NCBI GenBank assembly: GCA_004431415.1
Contig: QPMI01000446.1
Span: 1-42,215, forward strand
Origin: Cyanophora paradoxa CCMP329
Taxonomy: Eukaryota > Plantae > Glaucophyta
Reading direction: 5' to 3'
Length of the DNA stretch: 42,215 nucleotides
The position numbers were made by a program, and so were the translations under genes. The notes beneath the pieces are model-generated. The model did no database searches and was not told where the DNA came from. It saw nothing but the letters and a program-made list of their open reading frames with translations. Positions 9,001 through 37,534 of the stretch are shown here, piece by piece; the first letter of the stretch is position 1, and the number at the start of each line of letters is the position of its first letter.

Positions 9001-12000
9001 CTGCCGACGACGGGCCCGCCGCTTGCGCACCGTGTGCTGCGCGACGGCGTTGAGATTGCGAGGGTGCCGGGGACGCAAACGTCGGTGGAGGTGCCGGACC
9101 TTGCGAGGGGCTTGGTGTCGACATTTGTCGTGGTGGCAGTGGACGGCGCCAGCGGAGCCGAGTCGAAGCCGCTCATCGCTGGCATCGCCCGGGACCCGAA
9201 CAGTGGCATCACCCTCAAAGCGGTGCCTACCGCGTCGAACGGCTCGTCAGCGCAGCTCTCGTGGAACACGCCTGCTGCGTCTGATACAGTGACTCTCTAC
9301 AAGCTGCTGGTGAACGGCCAGGTCGTCGCGACGCTGCCGCCGTCGGGAATCGCGATGAACGGTTTCGAGGCAAAGAGCCTGCCGTCGGGTGCGGTGGCGG
9401 AGGTGGTGGCGGTGTTCGCGTCAGGCGCCACGCTGTCGAGCACGCCTGTGCCGATCTCGGCGGGAGGCGGCGGCAGCGGGTTTGGCGTTGGGGCCGCCCG
9501 CAAGTCGACGGCGCCCACGAACCTGCAGCTGGTGGATGTCGCGTCCGGCATGTTCGGCGGCACGACGGGCACGCTCTCGTGGTCGCTGCCGACGACGGGC
9601 CCGCCGCTTGCGCACCGTGTGCTGCGCGACGGCGTTGAGATTGCGAGGGTGCCGGGGACGCAAACGTCGGTGGAGGTGCCGGACCTTGCGAGGGGCTTGG
9701 TGTCGACATTTGTCGTGGTGGCAGTGGACGGCGCCAGCGGAGCCGAGTCGAAGCCGCTCATCGCTGGCATCGCCCGGGACCCGAACAGTGGCATCACCCT
9801 TAAGGCGGTGCCTACCGCGTCGAACGGCTCGTCAGCGCAGCTCTCGTGGAACACGCCTGCTGCGTCTGATACAGTGACTCTCTACAAGCTGCTGGTGAAC
9901 GGCCAGGTCGTCGCGACGCTGCCGCCGTCGGGAATCGCGATGAACGGTTTCGAGGCAAAGAGCCTGCGTCGGGTGCGGTGGCGGAGGTGGTGGCGGTGTT
10001 CGCGTCAGGCGCCACGCTGTCGAGCACGCCTGTGCCGATCTCGGCGGGAGGCGGCGGCAGCGGGTTTGGCGTTGCAATTGGGGCCGCCCGCAAGTCGACG
10101 GCGCCCACGAACCTGCAGCTGGTGGATGTCGCGTCCGGCATGTTCGGCGGCACGACGGGCACGCTCTCGTGGTCGCTGCCGACGACGGGCCCGCCGCTTG
10201 CGCACCGTGTGCTGCGCGACGGCGTTGAGATTGCGAGGGTGCCGGGGACGCAAACGTCGGTGGAGGTGCCGGACCTTGCGAGGGGCTTGGTGTCGACATT
10301 TGTCGTGGTGGCAGTGGACGGCGCCAGTGGAGCCGAGTCGAAGCCGCTCATTGCTGGCATCGCCCGGGACCCGAACAGTGGCATCACCCTCAAAGCGGTG
10401 CCTACCGCGTCGAACGGCTCGTCAGCGCAGCTCTCGTGGAACACGCCTGCTGCGTCTGATACAGTGACTCTCTACAAGCTGCTGGTGAACGGCCAGGTCG
10501 TCGCGACGCTGCCGCCGTCGGGAATCGCGATGAACGGTTTCGAGGCAAAGAGCCTGCCGTCGGGTGCGGTGGCGGAGGTGGTGGCGGTGTTCGCGTCAGG
10601 CGCCACGCTGTCGAGCACGCCTGTGCCGATCTCGGCGGGAGGCGGCGGCAGCGGGTTTGGCGTTGGGGCCGCCCGCAAGTCGACGGCGCCCACGAACCTG
10701 CAGCTGGTGGATGTCGCGTCCGGCATGTTCGGCGGCACGACGGGCACGCTCTCGTGGTCGCTGCCGACGACGGGCCCGCCGCTTGCGCACCGTGTGCTGC
10801 GCGACGGCGTTGAGATTGCGAGGGTGCCGGGGACGCAAACGTCGGTGGAGGTGCCGGACCTTGCGAGGGGCTTGGTGTCGACATTTGTCGTGGTGGCAGT
10901 GGACGGCGCCAGCGGAGCCGAGTCGAAGCCGCTCATCGCTGGCATCGCCCGGGACCCGAACAGTGGCATCACCCTTAAGGCGGTGCCTACCGCGTCGAAC
11001 GGCTCGTCAGCGCAGCTCTCGTGGAACACGCCTGCTGCGTCTGATACAGTGACTCTCTACAAGCTGCTGGTGAACGGCCAGGTCGTCGCGACGCTGCCGC
11101 CGTCGGGAATCGCGATGAACGGTTTCGAGGCAAAGAGCCTGCCGTCGGGTGCGGTGGCGGAGGTGGTGGCGGTGTTCGCGTCAGGCGCCACGCTGTCGAG
11201 CACGCCTGTGCCGATCTCGGCGGGAGGTGGCGGCAGCGGGTTTGGCGTTGGGGCCGCCCGCAAGTCGACGGCGCCCACGAACCTGCAGCTGGTGGATGTC
11301 GCGTCCGGCATGTTCGGCGGCACGACGGGCACGCTCTCGTGGTCGCTGCCGACGACGGGCCCGCCGCTTGCGCACCGTGTGCTGCGCGACGGCGTTGAGA
11401 TTGCGAGGGTGCCGGGGACGCAAACGTCGGTGGAGGTGCCGGACCTTGCGAGGGGCTTGGTGTCGACATTTGTCGTGGTGGCAGTGGACGGCGCCAGCGG
11501 AGCCGAGTCGAAGCCGCTCATCGCTGGCATCGCCCGGGACCCGAACAGTGGCATCACCCTTAAGGCGGTGCCTACCGCGTCGAACGGCTCGTCAGCGCAG
11601 CTCTCGTGGAACACGCCTGCTGCGTCTGATACAGTGACTCTCTACAAGCTGCTGGTGAACGGCCAGGTCGTCGCGACGCTGCCGCCGTCGGGAATCGCGA
11701 TGAACGGTTTCGAGGCAAAGAGCCTGCCGTCGGGTGCGGTGGCGGAGGTGGTGGCGGTGTTCGCGTCAGGCGCCACGCTGTCGAGCACGCCTGTGCCGAT
11801 CTCGGCGGGAGGCGGCGGCAGCGGGTTTGGCGTTGCAATTGGGGCCGCCCGCAAGTCGACGGCGCCCACGAACCTGCAGCTGGTGGATGTCGCGTCCGGC
11901 ATGTTCGGCGGCACGACGGGCACGCTCTCGTGGTCGCTGCCGACGACGGGCCCGCCGCTTGCGCACCGTGTGCTGCGCGACGGCGTTGAGATTGCGAGGG

Positions 12001-15000
12001 TGCCGGGGACGCAAACGTCGGTGGAGGTGCCGGACCTTGCGAGGGGCTTGGTGTCGACATTTGTCGTGGTGGCAGTGGACGGCGCCAGCGGAGCCGAGTC
12101 GAAGCCGCTCATTGCTGGCATCGCCCGGGACCCGAACAGTGGCATCACCCTCAAAGCGGTGCCTACCGCGTCGAACGGCTCGTCAGCGCAGCTCTCGTGG
12201 AACACGCCTGCTGCGTCTGATACAGTGACTCTCTACAAGCTGCTGGTGAACGGCCAGGTCGTCGCGACGCTGCCGCCGTCGGGAATCGCGATGAACGGTT
12301 TCGAGGCAAAGAGCCTGCCGTCGGGTGCGGTGGCGGAGGTGGTGGCGGTGTTCGCGTCAGGCGCCACGCTGTCGAGCACGCCTGTGCCGATCTCGGCGGG
12401 AGGCGGCGGCAGCGGGTTTGGCGTTGGGGCCGCCCGCAAGTCGACGGCGCCCACGAACCTGCAGCTGGTGGATGTCGCGTCCGGCATGTTCGGCGGCACG
12501 ACGGGCACGCTCTCGTGGTCGCTGCCGACGACGGGCCCGCCGCTTGCGCACCGTGTGCTGCGCGACGGCGTTGAGATTGCGAGGGTGCCGGGGACGCAAA
12601 CGTCGGTGGAGGTGCCGGACCTTGCGAGGGGCTTGGTGTCGACATTTGTCGTGGTGGCAGTGGACGGCGCCAGCGGAGCCGAGTCGAAGCCGCTCATCGC
12701 TGGCATCGCCCGGGACCCGAACAGTGGCATCACCCTTAAGGCGGTGCCTACCGCGTCGAACGGCTCGTCAGCGCAGCTCTCGTGGAACACGCCTGCTGCG
12801 TCTGATACAGTGACTCTCTACAAGCTGCTGGTGAACGGCCAGGTCGTCGCGACGCTGCCGCCGTCGGAATCGCGATGAACGGTTTCGAGGCAAAGAGCCT
12901 GCCGTCGGGTGCGGTGGCGGAGGTGGTGGCGGTGTTCGCGTCAGGCGCCACGCTGTCGAGCACGCCTGTGCCGATCTCGGCGGGAGGTGGCGGCAGCGGG
13001 TTTGGCGTTGGGGCCGCCCGCAAGTCGACGGCGCCCACGAACCTGCAGCTGGTGGATGTCGCGTCCGGCATGTTCGGCGGCACGACGGGCACGCTCTCGT
13101 GGTCGCTGCCGACGACGGGCCCGCCGCTTGCGCACCGTGTGCTGCGCGACGGCGTTGAGATTGCGAGGGTGCCGGGGACGCAAACGTCGGTGGAGGTGCC
13201 GGACCTTGCGAGGGGCTTGGTGTCGACATTTGTCGTGGTGGCAGTGGACGGCGCCAGCGGAGCCGAGTCGAAGCCGCTCATCGCTGGCATCGCCCGGGAC
13301 CCGAACAGTGGCATCACCCTTAAGGCGGTGCCTACCGCGTCGAACGGCTCGTCAGCGCAGCTCTCGTGGAACACGCCTGCTGCGTCTGATACAGTGACTC
13401 TCTACAAGCTGCTGGTGAACGGCCAGGTCGTCGCGACGCTGCCGCCGTCGGGAATCGCAATGAACGGTTTCGAGGCAAAGAGCCTGCCGTCGGGTGCGGT
13501 GGCGGAGGTGGTGGCGGTGTTCGCGTCAGGCGCCATGCTGTCGAGCACGCCTGTGCCGATCTCGGCGGGAGGCGGCGGCAGCGGGTTTGGCGTTGCAATT
13601 GTGGCCGCCCGCAAGTCGACGGCGCCCACGAACCTGCAGCTGGTGGATGTCGCGTCCGGCATGTTCGGCGGCACGACGGGCACGCTCTCGTGGTCGCTGC
13701 CGACGACGGGCCCGCCGCTTGCGCACCGTGTGCTGCGCGACGGCGTTGAGATTGCGAGGGTGCCGGGGACGCAAACGTCGGTGGAGGTGCCGGACCTTGC
13801 GAGGGGCTTGGTGTCGACATTTGTCGTGGTGGCAGTGGACGGCGCCAGCGGAGCCGAGTCGAAGCCGCTCATCGCTGGCATCGCCCGGGACCCGAACAGT
13901 GGCATCACCCTTAAGGCGGTGCCTACCGCTTCGAACGGCTCGTCAGCGCAGCTCTCGTGGAACACGCCTGCTGCGTCTGATACAGTGACTCTCTACAAGC
14001 TGCTGGTGAACGGCCAGGTCGTCGCGACGCTGCCGCCGTCGGGAATCGCAATGAACGGTTTCGAGGCAAAGAGCCTGCCGTCGGGTGCGGTGGCGGAGGT
14101 GGTGGCGGTGTTCGCGTCAGGCGCCACGCTGTCGAGCACGCCTGTGCCGATCTCGGCGGGAGGCGGCGGCAGCGGGTTTGGCGTTCGGGCCGCCCGCAAG
14201 TCGACGGCGCCCACGAACCTGCAGCTGGTGGATGTCGCGTCCGGCATGTTCGGCGGCACGACGGGCACGCTCTCGTGGTCGCTGCCGACGACGGGCCCGC
14301 CGCTTGCGCACCGTGTGCTGCGCGACGGCGTTGAGATTGCGAGGGTGCCGGGGACGCAAACGTCGGTGGAGGTGCCGGACCTTGCGAGGGGCTTGGTGTC
14401 GACATTTGTCGTGGTGGCAGTGGACGGCGCCAGCGGAGCCGAGTCGAAGCCGCTCATCGCTGGCATCGCCCGGGACCCGAACAGTGGCATCACCCTTAAG
14501 GCGGTGCCTACCGCGTCGAACGGCTCGTCAGCGCAGCTCTCGTGGAACACGCCTGCTGCGTCTGATACAGTGACTCTCTACAAGCTGCTGGTGAACGGCC
14601 AGGTCGTCGCGACGCTGCCGCCGTCGGGAATCGCGATGAACGGTTTCGAGGCAAAGAGCCTGCCGTCGGGTGCGGTGGCGGAGGTGGTGGCGGTGTTCGC
14701 GTCAGGCGCCACGCTGTCGAGCACGCCTGTGCCGATCTCGGGCTCGCGGATCTTGGGCGCCCGTAGTGGCTCGCTCTCCGGTCCCGGTTGGACAATGAGT
14801 ACTTCAGCCGGCCATAGCGTCCATGACGGGGCGTTCAATGGATCCAGACACCGTCGCTCCTCGACATCCTTCAACGGTGCAGGACTTCTATTGGGAGAAT
14901 CCGCCACTGCTGCGACGGTTGTGGCTGCAGCGGCAATTCCGACTCCGGCACCTGCAGCGCCGGCGCTGTCGCTTTTCCCGCTTCTTCCTGCCTACTACGT

Positions 15001-15683
15001 AATCCGTCGGAACGGCGAGAATATTGGGACGGTTCCGCGGACGCAGCATTCTTTCGAGATCACCGATGTGGAGTTCGATGCGAACGCCATCCTTGATGTT
15101 TATGCAGTGAATGCTGGCGGCGCCTCTGGCCCCCGTCGTACAGCCTCTCTATGGGTGTGGCTTCGAATACTGCCACAGGGATTCACCTGACTGCGCGGCC
15201 GACGCGAGTCAACGGATCCCGCGCAAAGCTGCTCTGGAACACTCCGAAGGTGACGTCCAAGGACCGCTTGACGAGGTGCATTGATTGATTGCTGCTCGCG
15301 TTCGTTAGCGGGGCTGATTATGATGCCCATTCTGCAGCTTCGAAATCTTCCTGAACGGGAACCGCATTGCTGCGGCTCCGGCTCCGGTCGGCAAACAAGG
15401 AGCCGCGCTCAACACGTTCTCAGTCGACAGTGTCCCACCCACTGCCGCCTTCCAAGTGATGGCATTCTCGTCTCGCTCCGGGCCAGTGCCGGTCGCCGCG
15501 AGCCGCGTTGTGGAGTTGCAGCCCTACGACAGCAAGGCCCGAAGTGACAAAGGCGAGGAGGAGGCCCCGAGCGTGGCGGCCCCGGGTGACCTCGAGCTGG
15601 AGCTGAACAAGGTCGCGCAGGATCGGCATGACCCGAAGCGGGCCTCCTGCGTCCTGACCTGGAAGGCCCCGGGGTCATCATAG
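1..15683 (+). CDS. 5'-incomplete, multi-exon polycystin-1/adhesion-receptor-like giant membrane protein: Ig-like repeats, REJ, GAIN/GPS, single TM, FN3-like tandem array
   Basis: Many short GT..AG introns (e.g. 1592-1657, 7335-7402). REJ-like motifs LDASLSRDP (4063), LVFVWSS, VVTCTNW..DPLLYK and LPRGEGEDRTVRMVIIVKDIYNA. GAIN-like EVSNLSEPITV. Spliced GPS motif YYDKINKIWISCGNVT..SCNHLTPFAI (CNHLT at 7310-7324). Hydrophobic helix VAVPVVVGSITIALLAAAIIY (~7545-7607). Repeats follow and the last exon ends in TAG at 15683. Several 1-bp frameshifts in G/C runs look like sequencing errors. Confidence 0.8.
170..2420 (+). repeat. About seven diverged ~100-aa Ig-like protein repeats in the ectodomain
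   Basis: Recurring A-x-L-x-C-(x)P-x-R...C...P-L-L-x-[ST]-D-[FL] pattern: AARCNLTR..PILISDL; AVLHCPER..PLLTTDF; AVLSTNVTR..PLLPTDF; ATVSCSPIR..ALLASDL; ATLRCSPLR..DLFPSDF; ATLRCPPR..PLLPSDF; ARLSCPSR..AVLSDL. Confidence 0.7.
7732..14740 (+). repeat. 12 tandem near-identical 585/591-bp coding units, each encoding about two FN3-like beta-sandwich domains
   Basis: CGCAAGTCGACGGCGCCCACG recurs at 7741, 8330, 8914, 9499, 10089, 10674, 11259, 11850, 12435, 13019, 13610 and 14195. Translation APTNLQL..GTLSWS..HRVLRDG..FVVVAVD and AQLSWNTP..YKLLVNG fits the FN3 pattern. Confidence 0.9.
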
Positions 15684-16225
15684 GCGCAGCCTTTCAAATT
15701 CGAGACCGTTACAGATAAGATATAATTATATATAACTAGATATAGATATATTGATGTAGGCAGAGGCTCACACGTAGCGGTAGCCTTGCAGTGTGCGCAT
15801 TGCAGGCCCTAGGTCAGGAAAGTGTGCGCACAGCCCCAGTGTCTGTGTTAGCCATTTCAATGATGTATTTAGCCTTCATCTGTTCTATTATTTGTATTTC
15901 GCGCATGCGCGATGAGGCATGTCTAGACTCAGACTGAGATCTGCATCAATATCTGTCCAATATCTTCAGTCAGCTTTCGATTCGCTTCTGATGAGCTCGA
16001 CTACTCTGTGTGACTTGTATATTCAATCATATTCTTAACCGACTGTATTCTATTCTGAGATTATTCATCGTGTCCATTAATATTTCTGGCGAGCATTCAA
16101 GGGCAAGCAGCTGAAGGTTGCAGCATGCGCAGGGATGCTGCGGGAGAAATTCTAGATGCTGCGGCTGTGCCCCATTATTAACCAACATTATATAATTAGC
16201 CTAATGCAGGATGATATCGATGAGC

Positions 16226-16332
16226 CACCCCTCCACCTCCTCCCCCTCCACCTCCTCCCCCCACCTCCTCCCGCTCCCCCTCCCCCCACCTCCCCCCGCT
16301 CCCCCCCCCCCCCCCCTCCTGGCCCCCACGGC
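16226..16332. repeat. C-rich low-complexity tract (G-quadruplex/i-motif potential)
   Basis: CTCCACCTCCTCCCC units and a long poly-C run; mirrored as a G-rich tract at 42125-42215 where the window ends. Confidence 0.8.
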
Positions 16333-16611
16333 CTCCACTAATTTAATTCCCCTCGCTCTGAATTTTTCAAGAAGAAGTCCTAAGAAGTCCCCTCCAAATG
16401 ATTTTGAATTTTGTAATCGATATCAACTCCCATGCAATTTCCCTCTTTTTTCTTTCATTCGCTATAAATTTCCCCTCGAATTCGAACTCGATCCACTCCT
16501 CTCGATCGAGCTCCGGAAGAGCTCCACAGGCCGGCCTAGCTCCAGGGCAGAGAAAGAAGCCTGTCAGTCGGTCCCATGTCCGCTTCAAGCGCTAGCGCGG
16601 CATCGATATCG

Positions 16612-19600
16612 ATGGACTCCTTCCCTGGTAATCGAAAATCTCCCGCTGGTGATCATGATTGCAATGCGCCGACGGCTTTCGCATTTAATGCATATGGCAC
16701 ATTTCGGTGCTCGCGATCATACATGGCACATTTCGTGCGCAGATGAAGTCCTCCTCGCTATCATGTCGAATTTAGTGAAGGAAGCGGCGCGGGGCCTCGC
16801 TCCAGTGGCACTTGTGAACAGGAGACTACGCGCGCTGAGCGGAGATCCCTCGCTGTGGGATAGCCCTCGCTTTCGCCACGACGATCCGCCGTCTTTCTTC
16901 GTCGGCTCGTGCAGACGGCACGGGCGGCATTTTCGCCGCCTTTGCATCTCGGGACTCGCTCATTTGTCGGGGCGGGACGCGGTCAGAGGCGTTTCGTACT
17001 GCCCGAACCTGACCCATCTCAGCATATCGAGCTTTCTCGGACATATGGAGAGCTGTCGCTACGAGGAGACGAACGAACACTTGATTTCGAATATTAATCG
17101 CACGATGCTCGTGCGTTCCTACGTTTGGAAGACCCTCCCTCAGATGCCAGTGCGCTACGATTTGATATCGAGCTTCTTCGAATTTCTATTATATTATGCA
17201 ACGGTCCCCTAGAACCTCATTCACCTGAACGCGTCGGACGTCTCCATCACGGCGAGCTGCCTCGCCTCGGTGCTCAAGTCCTGCAGCGAGAAGCTCACCA
17301 AGCTGTACCTAAGGCGCGGCACTCGCCGCTTGTGCCCCATGCGCATGGCCGCTGGATTTCCCGCTGCTGATGCCTCGCCACGCGCAGCGACACCTTCCTC
17401 GTTGCAGACGAGTTCTCTCGGAAGGCCCGAGATAGCACTCCGGAGGAGAGCTGGCCTGCAGCGCACGCTTCGAGCATTCTGCATGCTTTCGCCGACATCG
17501 AGTGCGAGTTTTCCGTTTTCAGAATTCGAACAGATATATATTATAGCTAGTTGCGTACTTTACTTAAACCAGGCGCAGGCTCCCGCGGCTTGAGGAGCTA
17601 GATCTGTCCCGCACCATCTGCGACGAGCGGAATCTGTCGCAATTCCTCGCCCGCCTTCCGTCTCTCAAAGAGCTTTTCCTTGTGGGCTAACGTTCTCTGA
17701 ACTTTAAGAACTCGTCCAGTTTAAGCGAGCTCGCATCTGCGAACAGGTCCATCCGTTAAAGGAGCCGCCTTCGGACTGGCACTTCACGCTCGCTCGAACC
17801 CACTTGAGCAAGCTACGCCACTGGTGCGCGTGACTTTTCATGTCAAGTTTGCCTTGTAGAGCTTCACGTCCGTTTGCACACCTTCGACTTCGCCTCGCAG
17901 GAGCGCCAAGGGCCTGAAGGCAACGCTGCAGGCACGCGGTGTCTCCGTTACTCGAAAGAACTTCCTCAAGCTGGTGCGTGAACGTTGGGCCCCACATGTT
18001 TTCCAGATCCGGGCCCGGGGATCCGCGCCGTATGTACATGTGTATTTATTTTCTAGTCCTTGTAGATGACAGAACTCGTTGTCCTGTCGACGCCACCCTA
18101 CTCGAACTCCCCGCGAGCGCGAGCAGTCTACGCGAAGGTTTGTACGTGTTGTATAAAATCCTAGCATCGATATTTTGATGCACCTTCGATTTCATGCGCG
18201 CGCGCATCAAAATCGTGCGGCGCGCATTATTTATTATGCCCAGGTCATGAAGCTTCTGCCGGTGGTCCAGCGCTGCGCGGGCATCGACGCTCGCCTCCAA
18301 GACGGATCCACGCTCTTCCTCTCCGCTATGTATTCGGGGGTACCTTTGCACATTTGCTCCCCCGCTATATATGCTTTGTTGAATTCGCTCATCGGTCCCC
18401 GCTTTGACTCGAGCGCCGCGCTTGGCAGTACTTTGCGGCGGCGCAGCGGCTCGTGGAGGAGTTCGGGGCGGACCCGCTCGCGCGGTGCCGGCCGACTCGC
18501 TTTCGGGCACAGGAAGACCCCTGGGTGCGCATGCACGCGTCCTCTATCTGATCTTCTCGCCACCATCGATCCCCTCATATTCCTGCCGCCCCTCCATGGC
18601 CGCGGCTCCGATCCACAGTCTCCGCCCTACCCGACTACGGGGCACTTCAGCTTGAAGCGCGAAGCGGAAATCGGTCAGCCCGTTTCCGAGGCTCCCATGA
18701 GCGTATCGATTTCGCTCGTGATATCAGGGCCACAGCTTTTCATGATCAATTCGCGTCCGCGATTGTCATGCCTGGCGCATCGGTGCTCCATCTTTTCGCC
18801 CAAAAAGAGGGGTGCGCACATGTACAGCGCTAGCTATAGCACTCTAGCTAGATACCTTTTCTTTGGTGTTACTTGCAGTTTCCAATCCAGTTTGAGCGGG
18901 AATATCGCAGCCCAAGTTCACTTCAGCTGCGGAGTGCGCCAAGACGCGCTGCAGACCGACAGCTCGTCGGCCAGGTTCCGAACGTGAGTGTATATATGCA
19001 TCCCCTGCAGCTGCCAGCTGCAGGTGGGCTTCTCCGGCCTCTAACCCGTCATCAATCAGTTGCTCCGGGACTGGGGTGCCGCCCGCCTCGTTAATGAGGC
19101 GACCTGGGGCGAGCGGGGCCTCCCCCCCCTCCACGCCTTCTTGGCGACAGAGTGAGCCGGCCTCCCCTTAGGTCTCCCCTTCGCTCCGCGCTCACGAGCC
19201 TCGCGCAGCCCGCCTGTCTCATCCCTCTCAGGGATCTTTCTTGCAAGATCGATTTCCCCGCGCGAAGTGCTCCTAGCGCTGGGCGCCGACGAATCCAAGA
19301 CCGACGCCCGCGGCCGGTCGGTGCTGCACATCGCTGCTGCTTCGGGGCGCCCCCAGGCGGTGCGCGAAATCCTCGCCGCCCACCCCGGCATCATCAACGC
19401 CCGAGGTCTGCCTTCCATTTTAAATTCGAACATTAACTCAGATTTTTATCAATGGTGTGAAACCCGCTGCGTCGCATATAAAAGTGGCTGCACCGCCCTT
19501 CTCCTCGCTATCCGCACAATTGGATCACCAAGTGCGCCCCTGTTTTCCGATTTCCCATCGTTCCCCGCCCCGCGGCCGTCAGAATAACCGCAGATATAAT

Positions 19601-19728
19601 ACTAGTGGCCCGGCCGCGTTTTGGCGCGCCGGGGGTGCAAGGGGGGAATCTGGATCTAATGAAAGAGTAGTAGTGGCACGAACATGCACGGGGCAGATGT
19701 AGATTGACCCCGGCCCAGCGCGCGCGGC
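16612..19728 (+). CDS. Spliced host F-box + LRR + ankyrin-repeat protein (one gene or two adjacent genes), 3' end abutting the viral element
   Basis: ATG at 16612 plus intron 16628-16742 gives MDSFPDEVLLAIMSNL..VALVNRRLRALSGDPSLW (F-box). LRR-like CPNLTHLSIS, LNASDVSIT, EKLTKLYLR, RLEELDLS. Ankyrin-like IDARLQDGSTLFLSA, LLALGADESKTDARGRSVLHIAAASGRPQAVREILAAHPGIINAR and GCTALLLAI. Confidence 0.65.
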
Positions 19729-19823
19729 ACACATATTGAAAAACGAATTTAAATCCCTCGTTCATCTCGATCGCTTCGCGATCTCGATTCACTCTGGATT
19801 TAAATTCGTTTTTCAATATGTGT
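19729..19823 (-). other. 95-nt terminal hairpin with G.A-only mismatches and GCGAAGC apex (putative telomere)
   Basis: Perfect 28-bp stem 19729-19756/19796-19823, a 12x12 internal segment with 7 mismatches (all G.A on the minus strand), and a GATCGC-GAA-GCGATC cap. Lies exactly at the host/element boundary. Confidence 0.8.
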
Positions 19824-20143
19824 TAATTTAATACTAAAATACATATTTTTCGATTAATTTCTTAAACTTTTTATGCAAACTTTGTATAAAATAATGCAAA
19901 CTTTGTATTAAAAATGAAAACGCGTTTACCAAAATGCATATTTTCGATTAAACTTCGATAGATTCAATTGATCTTATATCGATTGATTATGTACTTTGTT
20001 GTTTACATACAAATCTGCGATAGATTAACATTAAACTGCTTAAAGATCGATATAATTGCGATTAAATTGCATAAATTCGCATAAACTCGATATATCTCTC
20101 ATGTATTGAAGTAGACCACCGCCCATTCTGTATCGAAAAACGC

Positions 20144-20401
20144 AAAAAGTGTCACAGAGTTGCATTGTGTCCAATTGAACAATCGATGAGATTGCTGATG
20201 TACATTTTTGCACCGAAAAAGTGTCACAGAGTTGCATTATCTCCCATTAAACAATCGATTAGATTGCGGGATTTTCTATTGGAATATATCGGAACTGCAT
20301 TATGTCCAATTAAACAATCGATGAGATTGCGGATTTATATTTTAGATCGAAAAAGTGTCACAGAGTTGCATGGTCTCCAATTGAACAATCGATTAGATTG
20401 C
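20144..20401. repeat. Four degenerate ~65-75-bp subterminal direct repeats
   Basis: Core TGCAT..TCCAATTRAACAATCGATKAGATTGC four times; three copies are preceded by AAAAAGTGTCACAGAGT (20144, 20216, 20350). Confidence 0.85.
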
Positions 20402-20433
20402 ATATGTTCTATAAAACAGAATAATTGAATTCA

Positions 20434-20960
20434 AGTGTGACAGGTAGTATTCAAATGATATTCAGTAATAGATATATTTGTTTTTGAGAAAGTCAGTAAG
20501 AGGGGTAGAATGTCTGTGACAGGTGTGACAGGTGTGACAGGTGTTTTCAGAAGTCTGTCATTTTTGAAAAATTTAGAAAGTTTGAAAATAGGTGTCACAC
20601 CTGTCACACCTGTCACACTCAATTAAACTACCTGTCACACCTGGTCTCCTTACCATTTTCAGTAAGACAGAAAGGTATTCATGAAATCGACTATTGTTGG
20701 GTGGATTTTGAAGGTGTCACACCTGTCACATAGACTGTTTTCAGTAAGACAACAATAAATTCTTGAATATCTCAGTAAGAAATAGAGTCTTTTGTTAATT
20801 GGGTGTGACGGGTGTGACAGGTGTGACAGGTGTTTTCAGAAGTCTGTAATTTGTGAGAATTTTAAAAAGTTTGAAAATAGGTGTCACACCTGTCACAGGC
20901 GTCACAGTCAATTAAATAGGTGTCACACCCGATTATCTGACCATTTTCAGTAAGACCATC
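20434..20960. promoter_or_regulatory. Iteron-like array (GGTGTGACA / TGTCACACC), putative replication origin or end-binding region
   Basis: Two blocks 289 bp apart (20515-20640 and 20801-20930), each 3 forward 9-mers, a ~55-bp AT-rich core and 3+1 inverted 9-mers; about 17 copies in total; also about five CAGTAAGA boxes. Confidence 0.6.
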
Positions 20961-20986
20961 TGAAATTCTGAATTTCTCAGTGTCAA

Positions 20987-21388
20987 CTAACTCGGAAATC
21001 GCAATACTCTATGTTTCTCCGATTTCTCCAACCCTGAAAACACACCTGTTATTCTCTCATCTATCTCATGAGATACTCTCGTGGTTTTTCTCTCTGCTTC
21101 TAATCCACAACTGAATATATCAATCGCCAGCATACCTTCATTTGAGTAACAATGAGCAGTGCAGTGGCTCTCATCCAGCAGAAGAACCATTGCAAAACCA
21201 GGAGGAGAAATACCACCATCGAAAATCTCGCAATGCTTGTGAACTACTCGAATACCTTGCTCTTGAATAATAGTTTGTAAGAACTGCATTAACCACCTGG
21301 TCGTTGTCTCCAAGTCTTCCACTCCTACTGCTAATTGGGTTCTGAATTTGTAATCCAGCATCACATGGAAGCCTCGATGAGTATTCAT
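20987..21388 (-). CDS. speD: S-adenosylmethionine decarboxylase proenzyme, small prokaryotic/phage type
   Basis: 133 aa with G.H..LD N-terminus and GFAMVLLLDESHCTAHCY..EGMLAIDIFSCG, containing the E|SH autocleavage site and DIFxCG motif. Confidence 0.9.
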   Translation of the reverse strand: MNTHRGFHVMLDYKFRTQLAVGVEDLETTTRWLMQFLQTIIQEQGIRVVHKHCEIFDGGISPPGFAMVLLLDESHCTAHCYSNEGMLAIDIFSCGLEAERKTTRVSHEIDERITGVFSGLEKSEKHRVLRFPS

Positions 21389-21428
21389 TTATGAATAATT
21401 TAGAAAAATTAAAAACGCGATTGGTAGA

Positions 21429-21578
21429 ATGCGAACCATCTTAGCAAGAGTGCTACCTTATGAGTTGGTGGATATCATTCTGCTGCACTACCACAAGACC
21501 TGTCCAAACTGCTTTGACACATGCATAATCACAAAGGGAAAATGGGGAAAGATCCTCATTTCTCTCTCAAAGATCTAA
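21429..21578 (+). CDS. 49-aa small ORF (not in ORF track) with LPYELVDIIL and CxxC motifs
   Basis: MRTILARVLPYELVDIILLHYHKTCPNCFDTCIITKGKWGKILISLSKI*; fills the gap between two genes, and its stop overlaps the stop of the convergent 90-aa ORF. Confidence 0.5.
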   Translation: MRTILARVLPYELVDIILLHYHKTCPNCFDTCIITKGKWGKILISLSKI

Positions 21579-21847
21579 TCAAAGTACAGTACCACTGGTT
21601 TATCATCTATCACAATTCCTGATGTAGTCTTTTTTCTGTAAGCATGAGAGGATTTCTTGTTGCACTCTCTGCATCCACTTCCCCTTACATGATTAAATGG
21701 GTAGGTTTGGAGGATCTTGTTGCATTTAAGGCATCTAACAGAGACCTTCTCTTGTGCTTTCTTATACACTGTCTCACTATAATCGAATTTAGCATCACCA
21801 TGAACCATCATTGCAGATTCTATGAATTTCTTTGTTTTATCATCCAT
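21575..21847 (-). CDS. Stand-alone Zn-ribbon repeat unit of the type found in viral homing-endonuclease N-termini (DUF723-like)
   Basis: FIESAMMVHGDAKFDYSETVY...VSVRCLKC...PFNHVRGSGCREC matches the FI..A..VHG.KYDY..V.Y....V.I.C..H/C.....P.NHL.G.GC..C pattern; no nuclease domain follows. Confidence 0.75.
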   Translation of the reverse strand: MDDKTKKFIESAMMVHGDAKFDYSETVYKKAQEKVSVRCLKCNKILQTYPFNHVRGSGCRECNKKSSHAYRKKTTSGIVIDDKPVVLYFD

Positions 21848-21872
21848 TCCTCTCTATATATACCTGAGATTT

Positions 21873-22700
21873 CTATGGAGCAGTATCCTGCCCGAAAATG
21901 GGGAAGTATCGATTTGTGCCGTAATATTCTGCATATGTATTCTGTCTTGCAATAGCATCGGTTCTCTCAGCATAGAGAATGCATTTGTAGATACCAAATC
22001 TGGTGGCTCTCACCAAAAACTGGTAATCTTCAAGACCGAAATTCACTCCATGATAAGCAATCCCGAAATTGTCATATGGAGTGATTACAACTGCAATATT
22101 TGGGGTTCCACCCTCTACTTGACAGACAGCATAAACATCTGGTGGAATATCCACGACCACCTTGTAGTGGTCACCAATCTCAACAAGAGAATCAACTACT
22201 GATGTCTGCTCATTCACAACAATTGGGAAGATCTTGATAATATATGGTGCATTCATACTGGGGACATAGGTGCGAATTCTGGTGTTGGGATCAATGGGAT
22301 TGGGTTGATCATTTACGAAAAGAGGCGCACCAACAGCTCCACCAATCCGAAGACCATCACCAATATATGCTCCCCCCGTTTTGCAGTTAATAGCTCCCGA
22401 CCGAGATTCAAAAGAATAAGTAGAAAGAGGATCACCATAACTGTCTGGGTCTCCATAATGGGCAGAAAAGTTCGCATTTGTCACAAGGAGTTTCGTTGTC
22501 TTAACTATACCATTATTTTTATCACATCTGAGTTCCTGCAATCTCAGTTTATGGGTGGAACCAAAGGTATTCATTGTAGGTTGTACTTCTGTGGATTGGA
22601 GACCTTCTACATCATCAAAAGTAGCATGCTGCAAAACGTGATTTGCAGGTGCTGCTAATGAGAGTTGGGGTGTAATAATTCGCTCTACTGGGGCAGCCAT
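21873..22700 (-). CDS. Fibre/spike paralogue 4 (275 aa): shared N-terminal domain plus unrecognised beta-rich head
   Basis: LRLQELRCDKNNGIVKTTKLLVTNAN and GAINCKTGGAYIG align with the three neighbouring paralogues. Confidence 0.65.
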   Translation of the reverse strand: MAAPVERIITPQLSLAAPANHVLQHATFDDVEGLQSTEVQPTMNTFGSTHKLRLQELRCDKNNGIVKTTKLLVTNANFSAHYGDPDSYGDPLSTYSFESRSGAINCKTGGAYIGDGLRIGGAVGAPLFVNDQPNPIDPNTRIRTYVPSMNAPYIIKIFPIVVNEQTSVVDSLVEIGDHYKVVVDIPPDVYAVCQVEGGTPNIAVVITPYDNFGIAYHGVNFGLEDYQFLVRATRFGIYKCILYAERTDAIARQNTYAEYYGTNRYFPIFGQDTAP

Positions 22701-22723
22701 TTTACATTAAAGTAATATATAAT

Positions 22724-23569
22724 TTATGGGGTTGGGTTATCAATCACATCTGGTTCCTGGTAAAACCCTGTTTGAGAAAGAGTATCAGGAGTAACACCTC
22801 TTAGAGCTGAGACAGCAGCTATATCTGTTCTGATACCCATAACTGTAATTGTATATTTTCCAATATCTGTAACAAACAGATCATAGGTGAAATTGTTATT
22901 ATAAACACAGAACCCTGTGCCGAAATGATCATATCCTTGAACACTGAAATTGTATCTGTGACCTGGCTGGTTATTGTTGGCTCTACATAAAGAAAGCATT
23001 GCAGAAGGAATGACCAGCCCTCTCATTACTCTTTTGGTTCCTTCAATCAATTCAGAGTTTTCAAGTGTGACAGTATAACCTTGGTAAAATTGAATAATTG
23101 GCTGTTGTGCAACTGGTATATATAATCGAATTCGTTGTGGGTCTTCAACATTCTGTTCAAGAGTATCTGGGACATCATTGTATGCAATTGATGAGGAGAG
23201 TTGACCTGAAACTCTGCAACCACCACCAATAAATGCTCCACCTGATCTCACAGTTACAGCAGCAGAATTCTTGTCAAAATCGAGGGCTTTCAGGTCTACA
23301 CTGTAAGCATCAGGACCTCCATTAGTGGGTTGGAAGAAGTTCGCATTTGAGACAAGGAGTCGAGTTGTTTTAACCACACCCGAATTCTTGTCTGCTCTCA
23401 GTTCTTTAACTCGAATAATCGAATTCTTATCAAAGGAGTTACCATTGGAATTGGGTCTCTCTGTGGATTCTAAACCACGAACCTCATCATTAACTTCATG
23501 CTGGCGAAAGTGCATAGCAGGGGATCCAAGGGAATATATTGGAAGTTGAACTCGATTATATTCACCCAT
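22724..23569 (-). CDS. Fibre/spike paralogue 3 (~281 aa from ATG)
   Basis: IRVKELRADKNSGVVKTTRLLVSNAN and AAVTVRSGGAFIG; likely start MGEYNR at 23569. Confidence 0.65.
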   Translation of the reverse strand: MGEYNRVQLPIYSLGSPAMHFRQHEVNDEVRGLESTERPNSNGNSFDKNSIIRVKELRADKNSGVVKTTRLLVSNANFFQPTNGGPDAYSVDLKALDFDKNSAAVTVRSGGAFIGGGCRVSGQLSSSIAYNDVPDTLEQNVEDPQRIRLYIPVAQQPIIQFYQGYTVTLENSELIEGTKRVMRGLVIPSAMLSLCRANNNQPGHRYNFSVQGYDHFGTGFCVYNNNFTYDLFVTDIGKYTITVMGIRTDIAAVSALRGVTPDTLSQTGFYQEPDVIDNPTP

Positions 23570-23607
23570 TGCTTCTTTTACTAAGAAGGAAAGAAAAATA
23601 ATGTACA

Positions 23608-23871
23608 CTACTCTTCTGTGACATTGTTATACTCGATGCCTTTCTTTACAGTTCCCCTTTGGAATGCCTGTAATACAATCGCTTCCTTTGAGGTTGGTAT
23701 CTGAACTCCTGATGAGATGCAAGATTGGATCTCTTTCTGAACAATCTCATCAATTGCGATTCTTGCCCTGTTGTGGGCAGCATTATCAATCCAGTCCTGA
23801 ACAGAAGCAGCGCAATATTCCATTCCCAACTTTTCGGTATCAGTCAGAACTACTTGGTATATATTCGACAT
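23608..23871 (-). CDS. 87-aa protein resembling small cyanophage/marine-phage proteins encoded downstream of C1q-type fibres (possible fibre chaperone)
   Basis: YQVVLTDTEKLGMEYCAASVQDWIDNAAHNRARIAIDEIV..IPTSKEAIVLQAFQRGTVK; recalled similarity, directly downstream of a C1q ORF. Confidence 0.6.
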   Translation of the reverse strand: MSNIYQVVLTDTEKLGMEYCAASVQDWIDNAAHNRARIAIDEIVQKEIQSCISSGVQIPTSKEAIVLQAFQRGTVKKGIEYNNVTEE

Positions 23872-23890
23872 TCTAAACTACTTGTAGAAA

Positions 23891-24912
23891 TTAAATTATG
23901 CTCAGCAATTCGCCACTAAACGTTGTGAATTCTGAAATGGAAGTATCAACAGCATAAATAGAGACATTATCCCCGGCTCCAAGTCTGAGTATTGCGCTCA
24001 AAATGATTGTTTTGTTGGTTACTGTTTGTGAGTTGTTTACCCTGAAATTGAATTCTGTTGAAACATTCTGATCATTTACTTTCAGATCTACACTCACAGA
24101 TGAGGTAACAATACTATAAGAATTAAGAGAGAATCTATAATCTCCACTTATAGGCGCTGTGAATTTCCCTTCTACTACATCAAATGAGTTGGTATTATCA
24201 AAGAATTCATGCAACCAATTAGTAAGACGCCCATATACTCCACTTCTTGTTGCTACACCAAACCCAACACAAAATCGAGGTTGGGTTTCTTGCTTCAAAT
24301 AAAAGTTTGCTGCGATTGTAAGACCCCTGCATCAATTCGTGCGACTTCTGTGCTATTGCGTTTCAGAATGAGATCTACATTTGCTCCTGTATCTATTTCA
24401 GGTGTTTGAATCTTTGTGGTTGTGGTCATCACAGGGACTGTATAAGTAGGAACAAAAAGACCACCATTTGCATTCACAACACCTGTAAATGTCGTTTGGC
24501 CTGAAATTGAGACGTTTGCAGCTGAGAGTGTTCCATTCACAAAAGCTCCCGAACCTATCCATGCTCCACCTGATTTAACTACAAGTGCTGCATTATTTTC
24601 TGTCCCATCAAAAGTAACAATCTGTGGTGTGGTCACCCCACCTGCATCATCATAAATAGCTGCATCAGCAACTACACCACCTGTTAACACCTGATTCTTG
24701 TTACTTACGATTAATTGTGTGGTTCTTATTTTTCCAGCATTTCTATCACATCGAATCTCCTTGCATCTGATAATCAAATTTTGAGTAAACGAATCTGCTC
24801 CTGTGGTTTCTGTGCAAATAAACCCGGGAATAGCATCTGTAACTGTGTGGTTCAGTTGATGCAATTTAGGTGCTGCATAACAGAAAACAGGAACTGCAAT
24901 TTGGGTAGCCAT
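23891..24912 (-). CDS. Fibre paralogue 2 with C-terminal C1q domain, split into 205-aa and 135-aa ORFs by one frameshift (~340 aa if joined)
   Basis: N-part IRCKEIRCDRNAGKIRTTQLIVSNKN..ALVVKSGGAWIG; C-part QPRF..FDVVEGKFTAPISGDYRFSL..LRLGAGDNVSIY..TTFSGELL (C1q). One extra G in AGGGGTCT gives DAGGLTIAANFYLKQETQPRF. Confidence 0.75.
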
Positions 24913-24934
24913 CTATAAATTCCCAACAAAAAGT

Positions 24935-25980
24935 TTATAATCTACTGATGAGATGCCCCCCAAAACAGGTAATACCTTGTATTGTAGCATCATATTGCAT
25001 GGACGATGTCCAGGTTTGTATAACATTCACAAATTCGTTCGCATATACAGCAAAAGAAGCCTCCATATGAACACTTCGCCTTCCATTGTAAGTTGAAAAT
25101 TCTTGAACCGATTGAGGGAAAGAGCCAAATCATTCTTTCTAAATGCAACTCTACACTCCCCTGTTGATGAAGCTGTTGACATTTGAACAATGAAGAAGAA
25201 TCTATAAATTCCGGACACAGGTGCTGTAAAGGTGCCTGTGGATAATGTGATATTATTGCTTGCATCCACAAGAGTTCTGTTAAAAGCGAATCTTCTTGCT
25301 GTTGATGTGGTTCCCACAGTAACTGCTGATGTTGAATAATTTACAATACAAAACCGAGGGTGAGGAGCTTTCAGATATTTAATTAGATTTATTGAAGGGG
25401 AAACATTGTTTATGGTTGCTGTAACCACTGCATTTCTCTTGATATTGAGTGCATTCGATGATTCAATTTCAGGTGTGTTTAACATTGTGGAAAAGACACC
25501 AACACCAACTGAAAAACTACTCGCATTATATCCACCCTCAAAATTTATTGGACTCTCAAACATTCCACTTCCAGCATTTAGTATGGATGCTGTTACTGTT
25601 CCATTCACCTTTAATGCCTCTCCAAAGTATGCTCCTCCACTCTTGACTACAAGAGCGGAAGTATTACTTGTGTTACCAAAAGAAACTATCTGTGCTGTGG
25701 TAAATCCACCTACATTATCATATATTGCTGAATCTGGGACTACTTGACCTGCTTGAACCTGATTTTTATTCGAGATAATAATTCCTGTGGTTCTTATCTT
25801 GCCTCCATTCCTATCACATCGAATTTCTTTGACTCTGAGTATATTATTCTCTGTGAAAGAGGTATTACTTGAAGTTTCAGTACAAATATACCCAGGGGTT
25901 GAATCAACTACTCCATGAGAGGTGCTGTGCAGTGATTTGGCTGCAAGTTCATAGTTTGGGATTTCTAATAGAGAGGTCAT
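24935..25980 (-). CDS. Fibre paralogue 1 with C1q domain (left copy has a 1-bp deletion near 25115)
   Basis: Mirror of 32518-33564; one C fewer in TTTCCCC shifts the last ~60 codons. Confidence 0.75.
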
Positions 25981-25999
25981 CTTTATATTAATCAAATAG

Positions 26000-27694
26000 T
26001 TAAATTGCGACAGCAATGTAATGGATTGTTACAGTTTTGGATGAATTATTCATTGCATATGGATCAGTGAAAAGTTCACAAGTGAAATAGTTACTGTAAA
26101 CATTCAACAGGTTCACAGTAAAAATGACGGGAGTTACTTGATAATTTGGTTCTTGTCCTTCATGCCTTACAGTTGCTGTAACAACAGGAGGAGAAGCAAA
26201 GGCATTGGTAAAATAGATAGTAAGATTGAACACATATAGATTATTGTAATTTAAAACAGGAGTAGTGTAAACATACTTACCTGCTTGAATTTTCCCATTA
26301 AAATATGCATTGAGTTGACTGGAAAGATCTGCTTCTGTAATGCATCGACTGATGGTCGCATTATTTGAGGGGTTCATAGCATAGAAATTCCTTGCATATG
26401 CATTTCCACGAACAAGTAAGGTTTTATCAAAGTAATTCTGCGAATTGTGGAAGAACCATGTTTCTTCAAACATAGGTCCTGCTGGTTCTACAATCTGACC
26501 TGATCCTACATACATCGTGTTGTTGGCTCTAATAGTGGTTGCTGTGAATGGATCAAGAGTAGGTCGATCTGTAATATCTCCCCAAAGGTGTGTGTGAGCA
26601 AAATCTGTAATTTGAGACTTAGTATGAGTATGAGCAAAGTCTGTAATCTCACCTTTGGTGTGAGTGTGTGCAAAATCTGTTATCTCACTCTTTACATGGG
26701 TGTGAGCAAAGTCTGTAATCTCTCCTTTGGTGTGAGTGTGTGCAAAATCTGTTATCTGTGACTTTGTGTGAGTGTGTGCGAAATCTGTGATTTCAGATTT
26801 AAAATGAGTGTGAGCGAAATTCGTGATATCTGCTCTGGTGTGGAAGTGAGCAAAATCTGTTATCTGGGATTTGGTGTGAGTGTGTGCAAAATCTATAATT
26901 TCTGCCTTTGTGTGGGTGTGTGATCTATTATTCAGATCAAGGAAACTACCTGAGTATGCAACAGGGTGTAAATTGGATGGGGTGGGTTTATTGAGGAGAT
27001 CATTATAATCTCCTGTGAAAGAGATCGTTTTCAGTTCACCCCTTCCAACATAATCAGAAGGTAGGTCAATCTTAATGGGCATAATAGCTGGATCATCTGG
27101 GATCTCATACTCACCTCCTGGATGTACAACTGGGAAGGTTTGATTACTTTCAGTGTGGACAAAGAAGTTACATGCTGTCACTGTTCCATCAATTATTCCA
27201 CCTGTGAGAGGGAGGTAATCACCTGTCACACCAATATTAATACCTGCAATAATTGTATTCAGTTCTGTTTCATCTATGTAGTTTTGGGCTTGAAGGTAAT
27301 CCTCTGTTACCACTCTTGATATGGTCTCATTGTGAATATTCTTTGCTGCTGCCCTTTGATTGATTTCTAAAACTCCCTCACCAACTCCACCATTATAATT
27401 CGTTTTTATCCATGAGATTTCGCATCTCTTGTAGTCATCTCGATTTCCAATGAGAGCATTGGGTAACAATCTCTCTCTGCTGAATATTAATTTGGGTCTT
27501 GAACTATCTAAGTCACTAACATCAGTTACATTAATTTGGATTGCTGCATCTTTGTCATCATAGTTTGCTGGATCAGATGGTAGAGAGATCAATCCTCCTG
27601 TCATTGGGATGTCATCTGCATAGTAACTGGTTAAATAGATACCTGGTTTGGTGTCCATCAAACCGAAATTTCCGCCTGCTGCAATTATCTGCAT
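26000..27694 (-). CDS. HxH-repeat tail-fibre-like protein, 564 aa (left copy)
   Basis: Same translation as 30804-32498. Confidence 0.8.
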   Translation of the reverse strand: MQIIAAGGNFGLMDTKPGIYLTSYYADDIPMTGGLISLPSDPANYDDKDAAIQINVTDVSDLDSSRPKLIFSRERLLPNALIGNRDDYKRCEISWIKTNYNGGVGEGVLEINQRAAAKNIHNETISRVVTEDYLQAQNYIDETELNTIIAGINIGVTGDYLPLTGGIIDGTVTACNFFVHTESNQTFPVVHPGGEYEIPDDPAIMPIKIDLPSDYVGRGELKTISFTGDYNDLLNKPTPSNLHPVAYSGSFLDLNNRSHTHTKAEIIDFAHTHTKSQITDFAHFHTRADITNFAHTHFKSEITDFAHTHTKSQITDFAHTHTKGEITDFAHTHVKSEITDFAHTHTKGEITDFAHTHTKSQITDFAHTHLWGDITDRPTLDPFTATTIRANNTMYVGSGQIVEPAGPMFEETWFFHNSQNYFDKTLLVRGNAYARNFYAMNPSNNATISRCITEADLSSQLNAYFNGKIQAGKYVYTTPVLNYNNLYVFNLTIYFTNAFASPPVVTATVRHEGQEPNYQVTPVIFTVNLLNVYSNYFTCELFTDPYAMNNSSKTVTIHYIAVAI

Positions 27695-29075
27695 CCTTGT
27701 AGGGGTCTGATGTATAATTCACCCTGCATTTTGGTTCCTGCATCTATTCCTTTGAGATTCAGGTAATATTCATCTAATCTTAATCTCTCTGGTATGATAT
27801 TACTTTGGTAGAGAGTAACACCATGTAAGGTGTCGAAATCATCACCTGCTGATGCGAATTTTGGTTGTTCATCTATTTCGCTCCATTTATGTCTGTGATC
27901 TTCTGGTGGAAACTCTTCTGGTTTTCCATCAATATCACCCCAGTCATGCCTGTGATCCTCTGGTGGGAATTTGTCTGGTTTACCTAATATCTCATCCCAG
28001 TCATGGTTGTGATCCTCTGGTGGAAATCTGGCTGGTTTATTGTTGATCTGCTCCCAATCTGGGAAGAATTCCCAAATCTCTGGGCGAAATCCATCTGGTA
28101 ATAATTCTTCATGGGGTTCATATGGTTGCTCATAATCCACAACTGGTGGTTCGAGACCATCTGCTAAATATTCCTCATGGGGTTCATAATTCTGCTCATA
28201 TTCATACTCTTGTGGATCTAAACCATCTGGTAAATACTCTTCCTCATTGGGGTCATATTGATCATACTCATATTCCTGTGGGTCAAAACCGTCTGGTAGG
28301 TATTCCTCCTCATCTGGGACGAAGTAGTAATCATCAAGCTCCAATATATCGATTTCGGGAGGTAAATATTGCTCATCAATTTGCTTTCTTGGTTCAATTA
28401 TCGGTTTATTTCGAACCTGCTCCCAACTCACAATGTGCTGCCCAAAGGGAACTGTCTCATCTGCTGTATACTCTCTTCCTGGTTGCTTTTTGGGTGTTAA
28501 ATCTGGTGGATCCCATGGAAGAGGAAAGGGAACTGGGACAGGTCCATTAGGTCCATAATATTCAAAGATCTCTCTTATGGTCTTCTCACTTACCAGTTTC
28601 TCACCATTTGCATACACATTGCTTCCATGGATATTTCGCCATTGCCTGGTTCTGATACCAAGATCTTTGGTGTTGGTGACCAAAGGTAAAAGGTGCCTAT
28701 CCATTTCGACAAGGTCTGGGTGTAAATGAACTGTTACTGGTTGAGTGGGGCTACTGTTGACAGTGATAGACGCCTTATTCTTTGCTGTATCACCAGGTAG
28801 TTGGAAACCGAATTGTGCATTAGAAGCCGAATTCGCCACAATATCCCTTGGATAAACATTGTTAGTGAACTCGATTTTGTTGGTTTCTCCATGGGGGGCT
28901 ATCTGTAATATTTCGGGAATTTGTGCAATTGCATTTGATCCTTCATTATAGATTCTTAAACCACTCTGATGCCCACCCTTCTCATTTTGAACATTGAATA
29001 TTAACCTACCACTATCGAATCGAGTTGGAATATCTGGATGGGTTCCACTGGTTTTCAGTTTTCTTGGTCTGCTCC
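27685..29075 (-). pseudogene. 5'-truncated copy of the 550-aa fibre protein (lacks the first ~87 codons and the ATG)
   Basis: Homology to 29161-30813 stops at the inversion breakpoint 29075; no in-frame ATG upstream before a TAG. Confidence 0.8.
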
Positions 29076-29160
29076 CCCACCTGATAATGAGAGAATTACA
29101 CGAAGGGGCATCTTTACTTAACTCAAATTTAATAAATCTCTATAAGTAGAGTAAATTGGG

Positions 29161-32498: not shown

Positions 32499-32517
32499 CT
32501 ATTTGATTAATATAAAG

Positions 32518-33564: not shown

Positions 33565-33586
33565 ACTTTTTGTTGGGAATTTATAG

Positions 33587-34607: not shown

Positions 34608-34626
34608 TTTCTACAAGTAGTTTAGA

Positions 34627-34890
34627 ATGTCGAATATATACCAAGTAGTTCTGACTGATACCGAAAAGTTGGGAATGGAATATTGCGCTGCTTCTGTTCA
34701 GGACTGGATTGATAATGCTGCCCACAACAGGGCAAGAATCGCAATTGATGAGATTGTTCAGAAAGAGATCCAATCTTGCATCTCATCAGGAGTTCAGATA
34801 CCAACCTCAAAGGAAGCGATTGTATTACAGGCATTCCAAAGGGGAACTGTAAAGAAAGGCATCGAGTATAACAATGTCACAGAAGAGTAG
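34627..34890 (+). CDS. 87-aa cyanophage-like fibre partner protein (right copy)
   Basis: Same translation as 23608-23871. Confidence 0.6.
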   Translation: MSNIYQVVLTDTEKLGMEYCAASVQDWIDNAAHNRARIAIDEIVQKEIQSCISSGVQIPTSKEAIVLQAFQRGTVKKGIEYNNVTEE

Positions 34891-34928
34891 TGTACATTAT
34901 TTTTCTTTCCTTCTTAGTAAAAGAAGCA

Positions 34929-35774: not shown

Positions 35775-35797
35775 ATTATATATTACTTTAATGTAAA

Positions 35798-36624: not shown

Positions 36625-36649
36625 AAATCTCAGGTATATATAGAGAGGA

Positions 36650-37509: not shown

Positions 37510-37534
37510 TTGACACTGAGAAATTCAGAATTTC

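Follow-up and report, generated by a model that had tools for sequence, protein, structure and literature searches.

A G.A-mismatch hairpin and a Helitron-type 3' end at the margin of a multi-copy, virus-like element in Cyanophora paradoxa

Results

Gene content and repeats of the element

We analysed a window of 42,215 nucleotides from Cyanophora paradoxa CCMP329 (GCA_004431415.1, contig QPMI01000446.1, positions 1 to 42,215). At 7588-14769 it carries twelve near-identical tandem units of 585-591 bp (GC about 0.68) that encode fibronectin type III domains and whose single-base length differences break the reading frame. A segment of a host ankyrin-repeat gene, recognised by Ank matches and low-depth contigs, occupies 19267-19601 on the plus strand, up to the insertion. 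It is followed on the minus strand by a 127-bp GC-rich repeat (19602-19728), which we refer to as the cap, and by a hairpin of 95 nucleotides (19729-19823). Self-comparison of the element body revealed subterminal direct repeats of about 70 bp (20144-20401, 88-94% identity) and a palindromic iteron-like array (20515-20617) that consists of three 9-bp repeats, an AT-rich spacer and three inverted repeats. A second iteron-like array (20804-20906) is 88% identical over 154 bp. By their sequence layout these arrays may be origin-like; we take them to resemble helicase-primase origins.

The first gene after the terminal repeats encodes an S-adenosylmethionine decarboxylase of phage/bacterial type (20987-21388, minus strand; PF02675, E 6e-11; phrog_3125), and it is followed on the same strand by a short zinc-finger ORF of the HNH-endonuclease-attached type (21575-21847; phrog_681, E 7e-11; PF14311 below cut-off). 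Four paralogous fibre-like genes and an 87-aa ORF fill 21873-25980 (minus strand). Alignment and C1q matches show that the four paralogues share an unnamed N-terminal domain and carry C1q or beta-sandwich heads. For the genes at 23891-24912 and 25027-25980 the C1q part lies in a separate or cut frame, through either an assembly error or a real break. A further fibre-like gene with phage-tail-type repeats (26000-27694, minus strand) has weak PHROG matches and a PF12789 match below cut-off. A complete tail-fibre-like gene (29161-30813, plus strand; phrog_23676 tail fibre, E 2e-10) has a mirror at 27685-29075 (minus strand) whose 5' part is missing.

A profile of the fibre paralogues matched 8 proteins at E<=0.001 among 1.84 billion: four unnamed metagenomic/Logan proteins, one weakly matching repeat protein, and three from Cyanophora paradoxa clusters of 1, 5 and 10 members. 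The unnamed N-terminal domain is found in at least 16 predicted genes of this alga, pointing to a related endogenous family. The low-confidence structure model (pLDDT 47) aligns best, though weakly, with a tailspike head (Z 5.8, rmsd 2.5, 69 residues aligned). Protein-based locus searches returned no relative in IMG/VR or the JGI metagenomes, word-based protein searches gave no match, and atlas searches returned unnamed phage clusters only. No RepHel (HUH plus Pif1 helicase), major or minor capsid protein, packaging (A32-like) ATPase, polymerase or integrase was found in the 10 element ORFs, which span the 9.5 kb of element in the window, and no replicase was found in the window as a whole. 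The element has a low GC content (about 0.39 versus 0.55-0.68) and a read depth far above that of its flank, a multi-copy, low-GC signature that agrees with a Polinton-like virus or virophage but is not diagnostic alone. We call it virus-like on the basis of its fibre genes, low GC and copy number.

An inverted copy of the locus

The stretch 16246-29075 recurs in inverted orientation at 29423-42215, the window end, with 99.5% identity over 12,836 columns and with the host flank included. Self-comparison leaves an unpaired centre of 347 bp (29076-29422). A mirror hairpin (38670-38764) and a mirror cap (38765-38889) lie on the plus strand, next to the same host flank. Single-base losses are one-sided (43 in the right arm versus 6 in the left) and fall mostly in host DNA. 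This 12.8-kb mirror is probably an assembly fold-back, which would inflate repeat and terminal-repeat counts. On this reading the hairpin at 38670-38764 does not represent another insertion, and the element interior beyond 29076 is absent from the window, as is the true far end, where terminal inverted repeats and a target duplication of a Polinton-like virus or virophage would lie. We rejected the mirror hairpin as independent evidence in view of the identity, the shared host flank and the one-sided base losses. Within 400 bp of the mirror centre, in the fibre gene, 13 substitutions give two haplotypes that differ at 10 codons synonymously and at 2 non-synonymously, so real, diverged family members exist.

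A hairpin with G.A mismatches at the edge of the AT-rich element

A sequence-only reading of the locus had described a 95-nt fold-back with a 28-bp stem, seven G.A mismatches and a GCGAAGC cap. End-to-end pairing, folding and base composition bear this out exactly on the minus strand, and the sequence it quoted is the minus strand at 19729-19823, or the plus strand of the mirror copy. Beyond its perfect 28-bp stem the hairpin forms 11 more Watson-Crick pairs; there are 7 mismatches, and the loop has 3 nt. Read on the minus strand, the 28-bp stem is followed by an A.G mismatch with a tandem GA step, 2 bp, a second tandem GA, 3 bp, a third tandem GA, 6 bp and a GAA loop. All seven mismatches on this strand are thus G.A or A.G (three tandem GA steps plus one A.G) and the apex reads GCGAAGC, whereas the plus-strand mismatches are C.T. 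The two inner tandem GA steps stand in a pyrimidine-GA-purine context on both arms, a stable context for sheared tandem GA. The folding z-score is -8.9 for the plus strand and -9.9 for the minus strand under an energy model in which sheared G.A pairs are unscored, and none of 200 shuffles folded as well. The probability that all seven mismatches fall in one class is about 4e-6 from the local base composition and about 4e-4 from the composition of the purine-rich centre itself. GCGAAGC is a very stable, nuclease-resistant mini-hairpin, and GNA mini-hairpins are found at the single-strand priming sites of phage G4 and ssiA (PMC13037366).

GC content is 0.65 in the cap (19602-19728), 0.36 in the hairpin and 0.24 in the following stretch (19824-20100), and the stem starts at the first base of the AT-rich element. 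The 3' arm of the minus strand ends at the element edge, which fits a fold-back tip. No further copy of the hairpin core motif was found in the window apart from the mirror, and an Rfam scan returned generic miRNA-like hairpins only, all below their gathering scores. The hairpin at 19729-19823 is a real and unusual structure.

Similar hairpin geometry in bacterial repeats

A degenerate pattern of the hairpin geometry, which matches the window, had no match in IMG/VR and eight in GTDB. Seven of these eight come from a single repeat family shared by two Phycisphaerae genomes; the eighth, in Streptomyces, pairs poorly and is probably a chance match. Over the apical 31 nt the Phycisphaerae repeats have the same cap and tandem-GA spacing as the hairpin, while their stem pairs are different and mostly complementary. 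The difference in stem sequence suggests that the likeness is probably convergent. Their core has 57 and 40 matches in the two genomes, compared with 0 for the reversed control, and their loops read GAA, GCA or GGA, leaving the middle base free. The repeats are REP-like and dispersed, often in direct or inverted pairs. A single Y1 transposase is present in one of the two genomes, with no such repeat adjoining it. Two further searches of IMG/VR gave a single match to the 20-nt hairpin core, in a microvirus without the stem, which we discarded as chance, and 29 matches to the stem pattern, none with a complementary arm or cap. The G.A/GNA geometry occurs in dispersed internal repeats of bacteria and therefore does not by itself identify a telomere.

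Variable host flanks begin 127 bp outside the hairpin

We used read depth and assembled contigs to locate the boundary of the multi-copy sequence. At least half of the words of 19300-22300 are present in 20 of the 21 listed runs, which represent one organism and perhaps one strain. All four of the four runs mapped show a jump in contig depth near 19602, with summed depth about 200 times higher in the bin that starts at 19585. In run X1 the depth of 41 on the flank gives way to 4,000-16,000 from about 19602, and at finer scale, by a crude estimate, the edge fits 19602 best. The host flank forms a single low-depth contig of 3.3-4.9 kb in each of the four runs, ending at 19626. In run X1, contigs with other long flanks diverge at 19597 (three) and 19599 (two). 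The sequence-only reading had placed host sequence directly outside the stem. Instead, the adjoining 127 bp are a multi-copy repeat, and both the low depth of the flank and its variability set in near 19601. The limit towards variable host DNA falls at about 19601/19602, so that the earlier junction is off by 127 bp.

At its outer end the cap has the form of a canonical Helitron 3' terminus. These transposons carry a short palindrome and then CTRR at that terminus; they integrate between an A and a T, with a preference for AT-rich sequence on the 3' side (PMC4778049). On the minus strand the cap closes with a GC-rich, terminator-like hairpin (19633-19609), which came out of the fold ranking and ends 7 nt before the 3' end, then three bases, CTAG (19605-19602) and a T (19601). 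These last five bases (19601-19605), supported by the sequence, the depth edge and the Helitron end rule, are the inferred host junction. Of the 172 CTRRT sites in window positions 1-29075, none other has an upstream fold as stable as that of this CTAG|T site. The end thus combines the CTRR terminus followed by T, the short hairpin near it, and many copies with different flanks, as seen in the depth jump of 4/4 runs and in five contigs. The G.A hairpin and the GC hairpin fold on the same strand, for which chance alone gives even probability.

Variant copies of the cap extend inward to 19728 or 19729, with 5-9 differences from it in 82-123 letters; in six contigs that have a variant at 19699 the match to the window reaches about 19729. 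Depth at variant sites in run X1 falls stepwise inward, from 13,700 (19624) to 7,900 (19651), 2,700 (19699) and 1,600 (19849), as expected of nested subfamilies with a common 3' end. Depth is higher in the cap (2,700) than in the body (1,600), so caps without a body may exist. Summed depths are not copy numbers, yet they imply tens of bodies and more caps.

Deep contigs cross from the inner stem into the AT-rich body (19795-19888, depth 1,106), and the hairpin is accordingly not a dispersed host MITE unlinked to the body. Among those listed, no contig of another copy covers both cap and hairpin. The six of 19 loose ends listed include no flank that departs at 19729, where overlaps of about 30 nt would probably be missed, and no strand-change joint at the hairpin. 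Other letters at 19757-19759 or 19793-19795 were absent from the 8 of 133 pieces and 6 of 19 loose ends listed. Neither flip and flop forms of the hairpin nor copies with different flanks at its edge, both of which the sequence-only reading had proposed to look for, appear among these loose ends; the other flanks lie at 19597 and 19599.

Several single contigs depart from the window sequence within or near the hairpin. One leaves for unrelated DNA at 19827 and is perhaps a truncated copy, and in another, at a depth of 497, the central 10 nt of an inner stem arm (19796-19827) differ although the arm is equally long. A 100-nt contig carries 9 unmatched letters beyond 19729. In run X1, one contig departs from the hairpin early, at 19759, and runs into two cap motifs in tandem; this shortened variant retains the mini-hairpin.

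Discussion

A virus-like element probably carried by a Helitron end

The variable host boundary lies 127 bp outside the hairpin, at a Helitron-type 3' end, which argues that the element was probably amplified as rolling-circle cargo. Our preferred explanation, in which belief and doubt are about equally balanced, is that a virus-like element ending in the G.A hairpin became lodged permanently within a Helitron end, with which it then spread. The G.A hairpin itself is likely to be the tip of the ancestral viral genome. That the hairpin is the terminal hairpin of a linear virus was also the claim of the sequence-only reading. This part is favoured by a structure that is strand-specific, non-random, multi-copy and placed at an AT-rich edge with fibre-like genes. 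Its companion, integration of each copy by its very end, is not supported, given the variable flanks 127 bp outward at CTAG|T. The corrected junction at the Helitron-type end is the more interesting part of the result than the junction first claimed.

In the scenario we propose, an element of the Polinton-like virus or virophage type with a terminal palindrome would have entered a non-autonomous Helitron at a point 127 bp short of the transposon's 3' end. A RepHel protein, acting in cis or in trans, would peel off the minus strand, stop at the GC hairpin and CTAG, and join the composite to A|T sites. Once displaced, the minus strand could fold into the G.A/GCGAAGC hairpin without protein, and this hairpin might serve as a nuclease-resistant signal for priming or protein recognition, either in the viral replicon or in second-strand synthesis. 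An extended form of this scenario, which we hold to be possible although rather doubtful, has a still-functional, virion-forming eukaryotic DNA virus that is fused with Helitron ends, uses the RepHel rolling-circle route into and around the genome, and keeps the sheared-G.A hairpin as the tip of its free genome or as a priming signal.

Alternative explanations

The sharp GC step exactly at the stem could also mean that integration proceeds through the hairpin end of the virus by means of its own integrase, repeatedly at one site in a multi-copy, Helitron-like host repeat, the cap being its target; this amounts to the model of the sequence-only reading once its flank is corrected. A cap that is deeper than the body and varies by 5-9 letters in 82-123 would suit such targeting, as would the mostly synonymous divergence, which points to a functional virus, and the palindromes that have been reported beside target duplications of endogenous virophages and Polinton-like viruses (bioRxiv 10.64898/2026.07.28.741278). 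The integrase would, however, have to hit its target to the base tens of times, and no deep contig leaves the cap at 19728 into other DNA among those listed. The rve integrases that accompany terminal palindromes are not typically so precise in their choice of site. We consider repeated targeted integration unlikely, and less probable still that the hairpin was never a genome tip and instead acts as an internal single-strand signal, for priming or HUH recognition, of a large rolling-circle element with virus-derived genes. The G.A hairpin does lie on the strand that a Helitron would displace, mini-hairpins of its kind are known from the phage G4 and ssiA priming sites (PMC13037366), and the same GNA/tandem-GA geometry recurs in the dispersed Phycisphaerae repeats with their 57 and 40 matches. 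Those repeats, however, were picked out by a pattern of the hairpin's own geometry, and the lone Y1 transposase in their genomes has none adjoining. An internal signal would also have no need of a stem that starts at the very first AT-rich base.

The inverted copy of the locus allows a further reading, as a real 19-kb palindrome: a defective element with terminal inverted repeats of about 9.5 kb, each ending in hairpin and cap, in which only the right host flank is mis-assembled. The tail-fibre-like gene is complete beside one inner margin and truncated beside the other, and the 13 mostly synonymous substitutions in 400 bp by the centre resemble the margins of long terminal repeats. A real palindrome is nonetheless hard to reconcile with the same 3.4-kb host flank on both arms and with single-base losses concentrated in the right one (43 versus 6). 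The block of substitutions is about as long as one short-read insert, as polishing from other family members might produce. We regard a real palindrome as very improbable.

Comparison with known systems

Endogenous virophages and Polinton-like viruses have already been reported to carry palindromes at their termini, the fusion of a transposon with a virus has been reported as well, and the claim that the hairpin is an undescribed end structure was too strong. Terminal palindromes and a hairpin-priming model were described for the non-pPolB virophages and Polinton-like viruses of Halocafeteria seosinensis (bioRxiv 10.64898/2026.07.28.741278). As in our case, these are low-GC endogenous elements of a eukaryote genome with a palindrome at the end. 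Their palindromes, however, adjoin target-site duplications and rve integrases, whereas a Helitron-type cap lies outside the one described here. The accessible text of that preprint does not mention G.A mismatches, which its supplement may show. The 95-nt hairpin offers a concrete handle on the proposal that non-pPolB elements replicate from terminal hairpins.

Terminal hairpins of other replicons are more distant. The sheared G.A pairs of Streptomyces telomeres stand in GNA loops (PMC5449611); there several palindromes are packed at the end together with a terminal protein, whereas we find one GNA hairpin, in an integrated form. Poxvirus telomeres are mismatched hairpins that come in flip and flop (PMC8956199), while a single isomer, again integrated, was seen here among the contigs listed. 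The Phycisphaerae repeats share an identical apical 31-nt geometry, but they are internal, bacterial, present in dozens of copies and built on a different stem.

With Helraiser and canonical Helitrons the element has in common a 3' hairpin, the CTAG end with a T after it, many different flanks and, in our scenario, a single transferred strand; Helitrons transfer one strand only (PMC5876387) and carry cargo of up to 39 kb (PMC6431247). The distance from the GC hairpin to the 3' end is 7 nt here versus 11 in Helraiser (PMC4778049). At its other end a canonical Helitron starts with 5'-TC after an A and leaves no target duplication; the corresponding end of the element lies outside the window. The element departs from canonical Helitrons in its cargo of intact-looking fibre genes, its own origin-like repeats and the second, G.A hairpin.

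Endogenous Polinton-like viruses and virophages integrate via rve or tyrosine integrases (bioRxiv 10.64898/2026.06.19.733378, PMC10120064). HUH genes are reported for mriyavirus-like groups, and the word Helitron is absent from the accessible text of that report (bioRxiv 10.64898/2026.06.19.733378). A virus with Helitron ends is not described in the accessible parts of PMC10120064, PMC11296320 and bioRxiv 10.64898/2026.10.09.758095, and we found no published Helitron-capped virus among the literature matches listed, which leave most subscription papers out of reach. Spread by Helitron ends would add a third, rolling-circle route beside those of the rve and tyrosine integrases.

A parallel is Teratorn, a fusion of a piggyBac transposon with a herpesvirus (PMC10175614, PMC6431247), in which a virus likewise spread in a genome through transposon ends. 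Teratorn joins a cut-and-paste transposon to a fish herpesvirus whose gene set is complete, whereas the element of Cyanophora paradoxa appears to combine rolling-circle ends with an unclassified virus-like body. A family with Helitron ends would be the second kind of transposon-virus fusion after Teratorn and, if our extended scenario is true, its rolling-circle counterpart.
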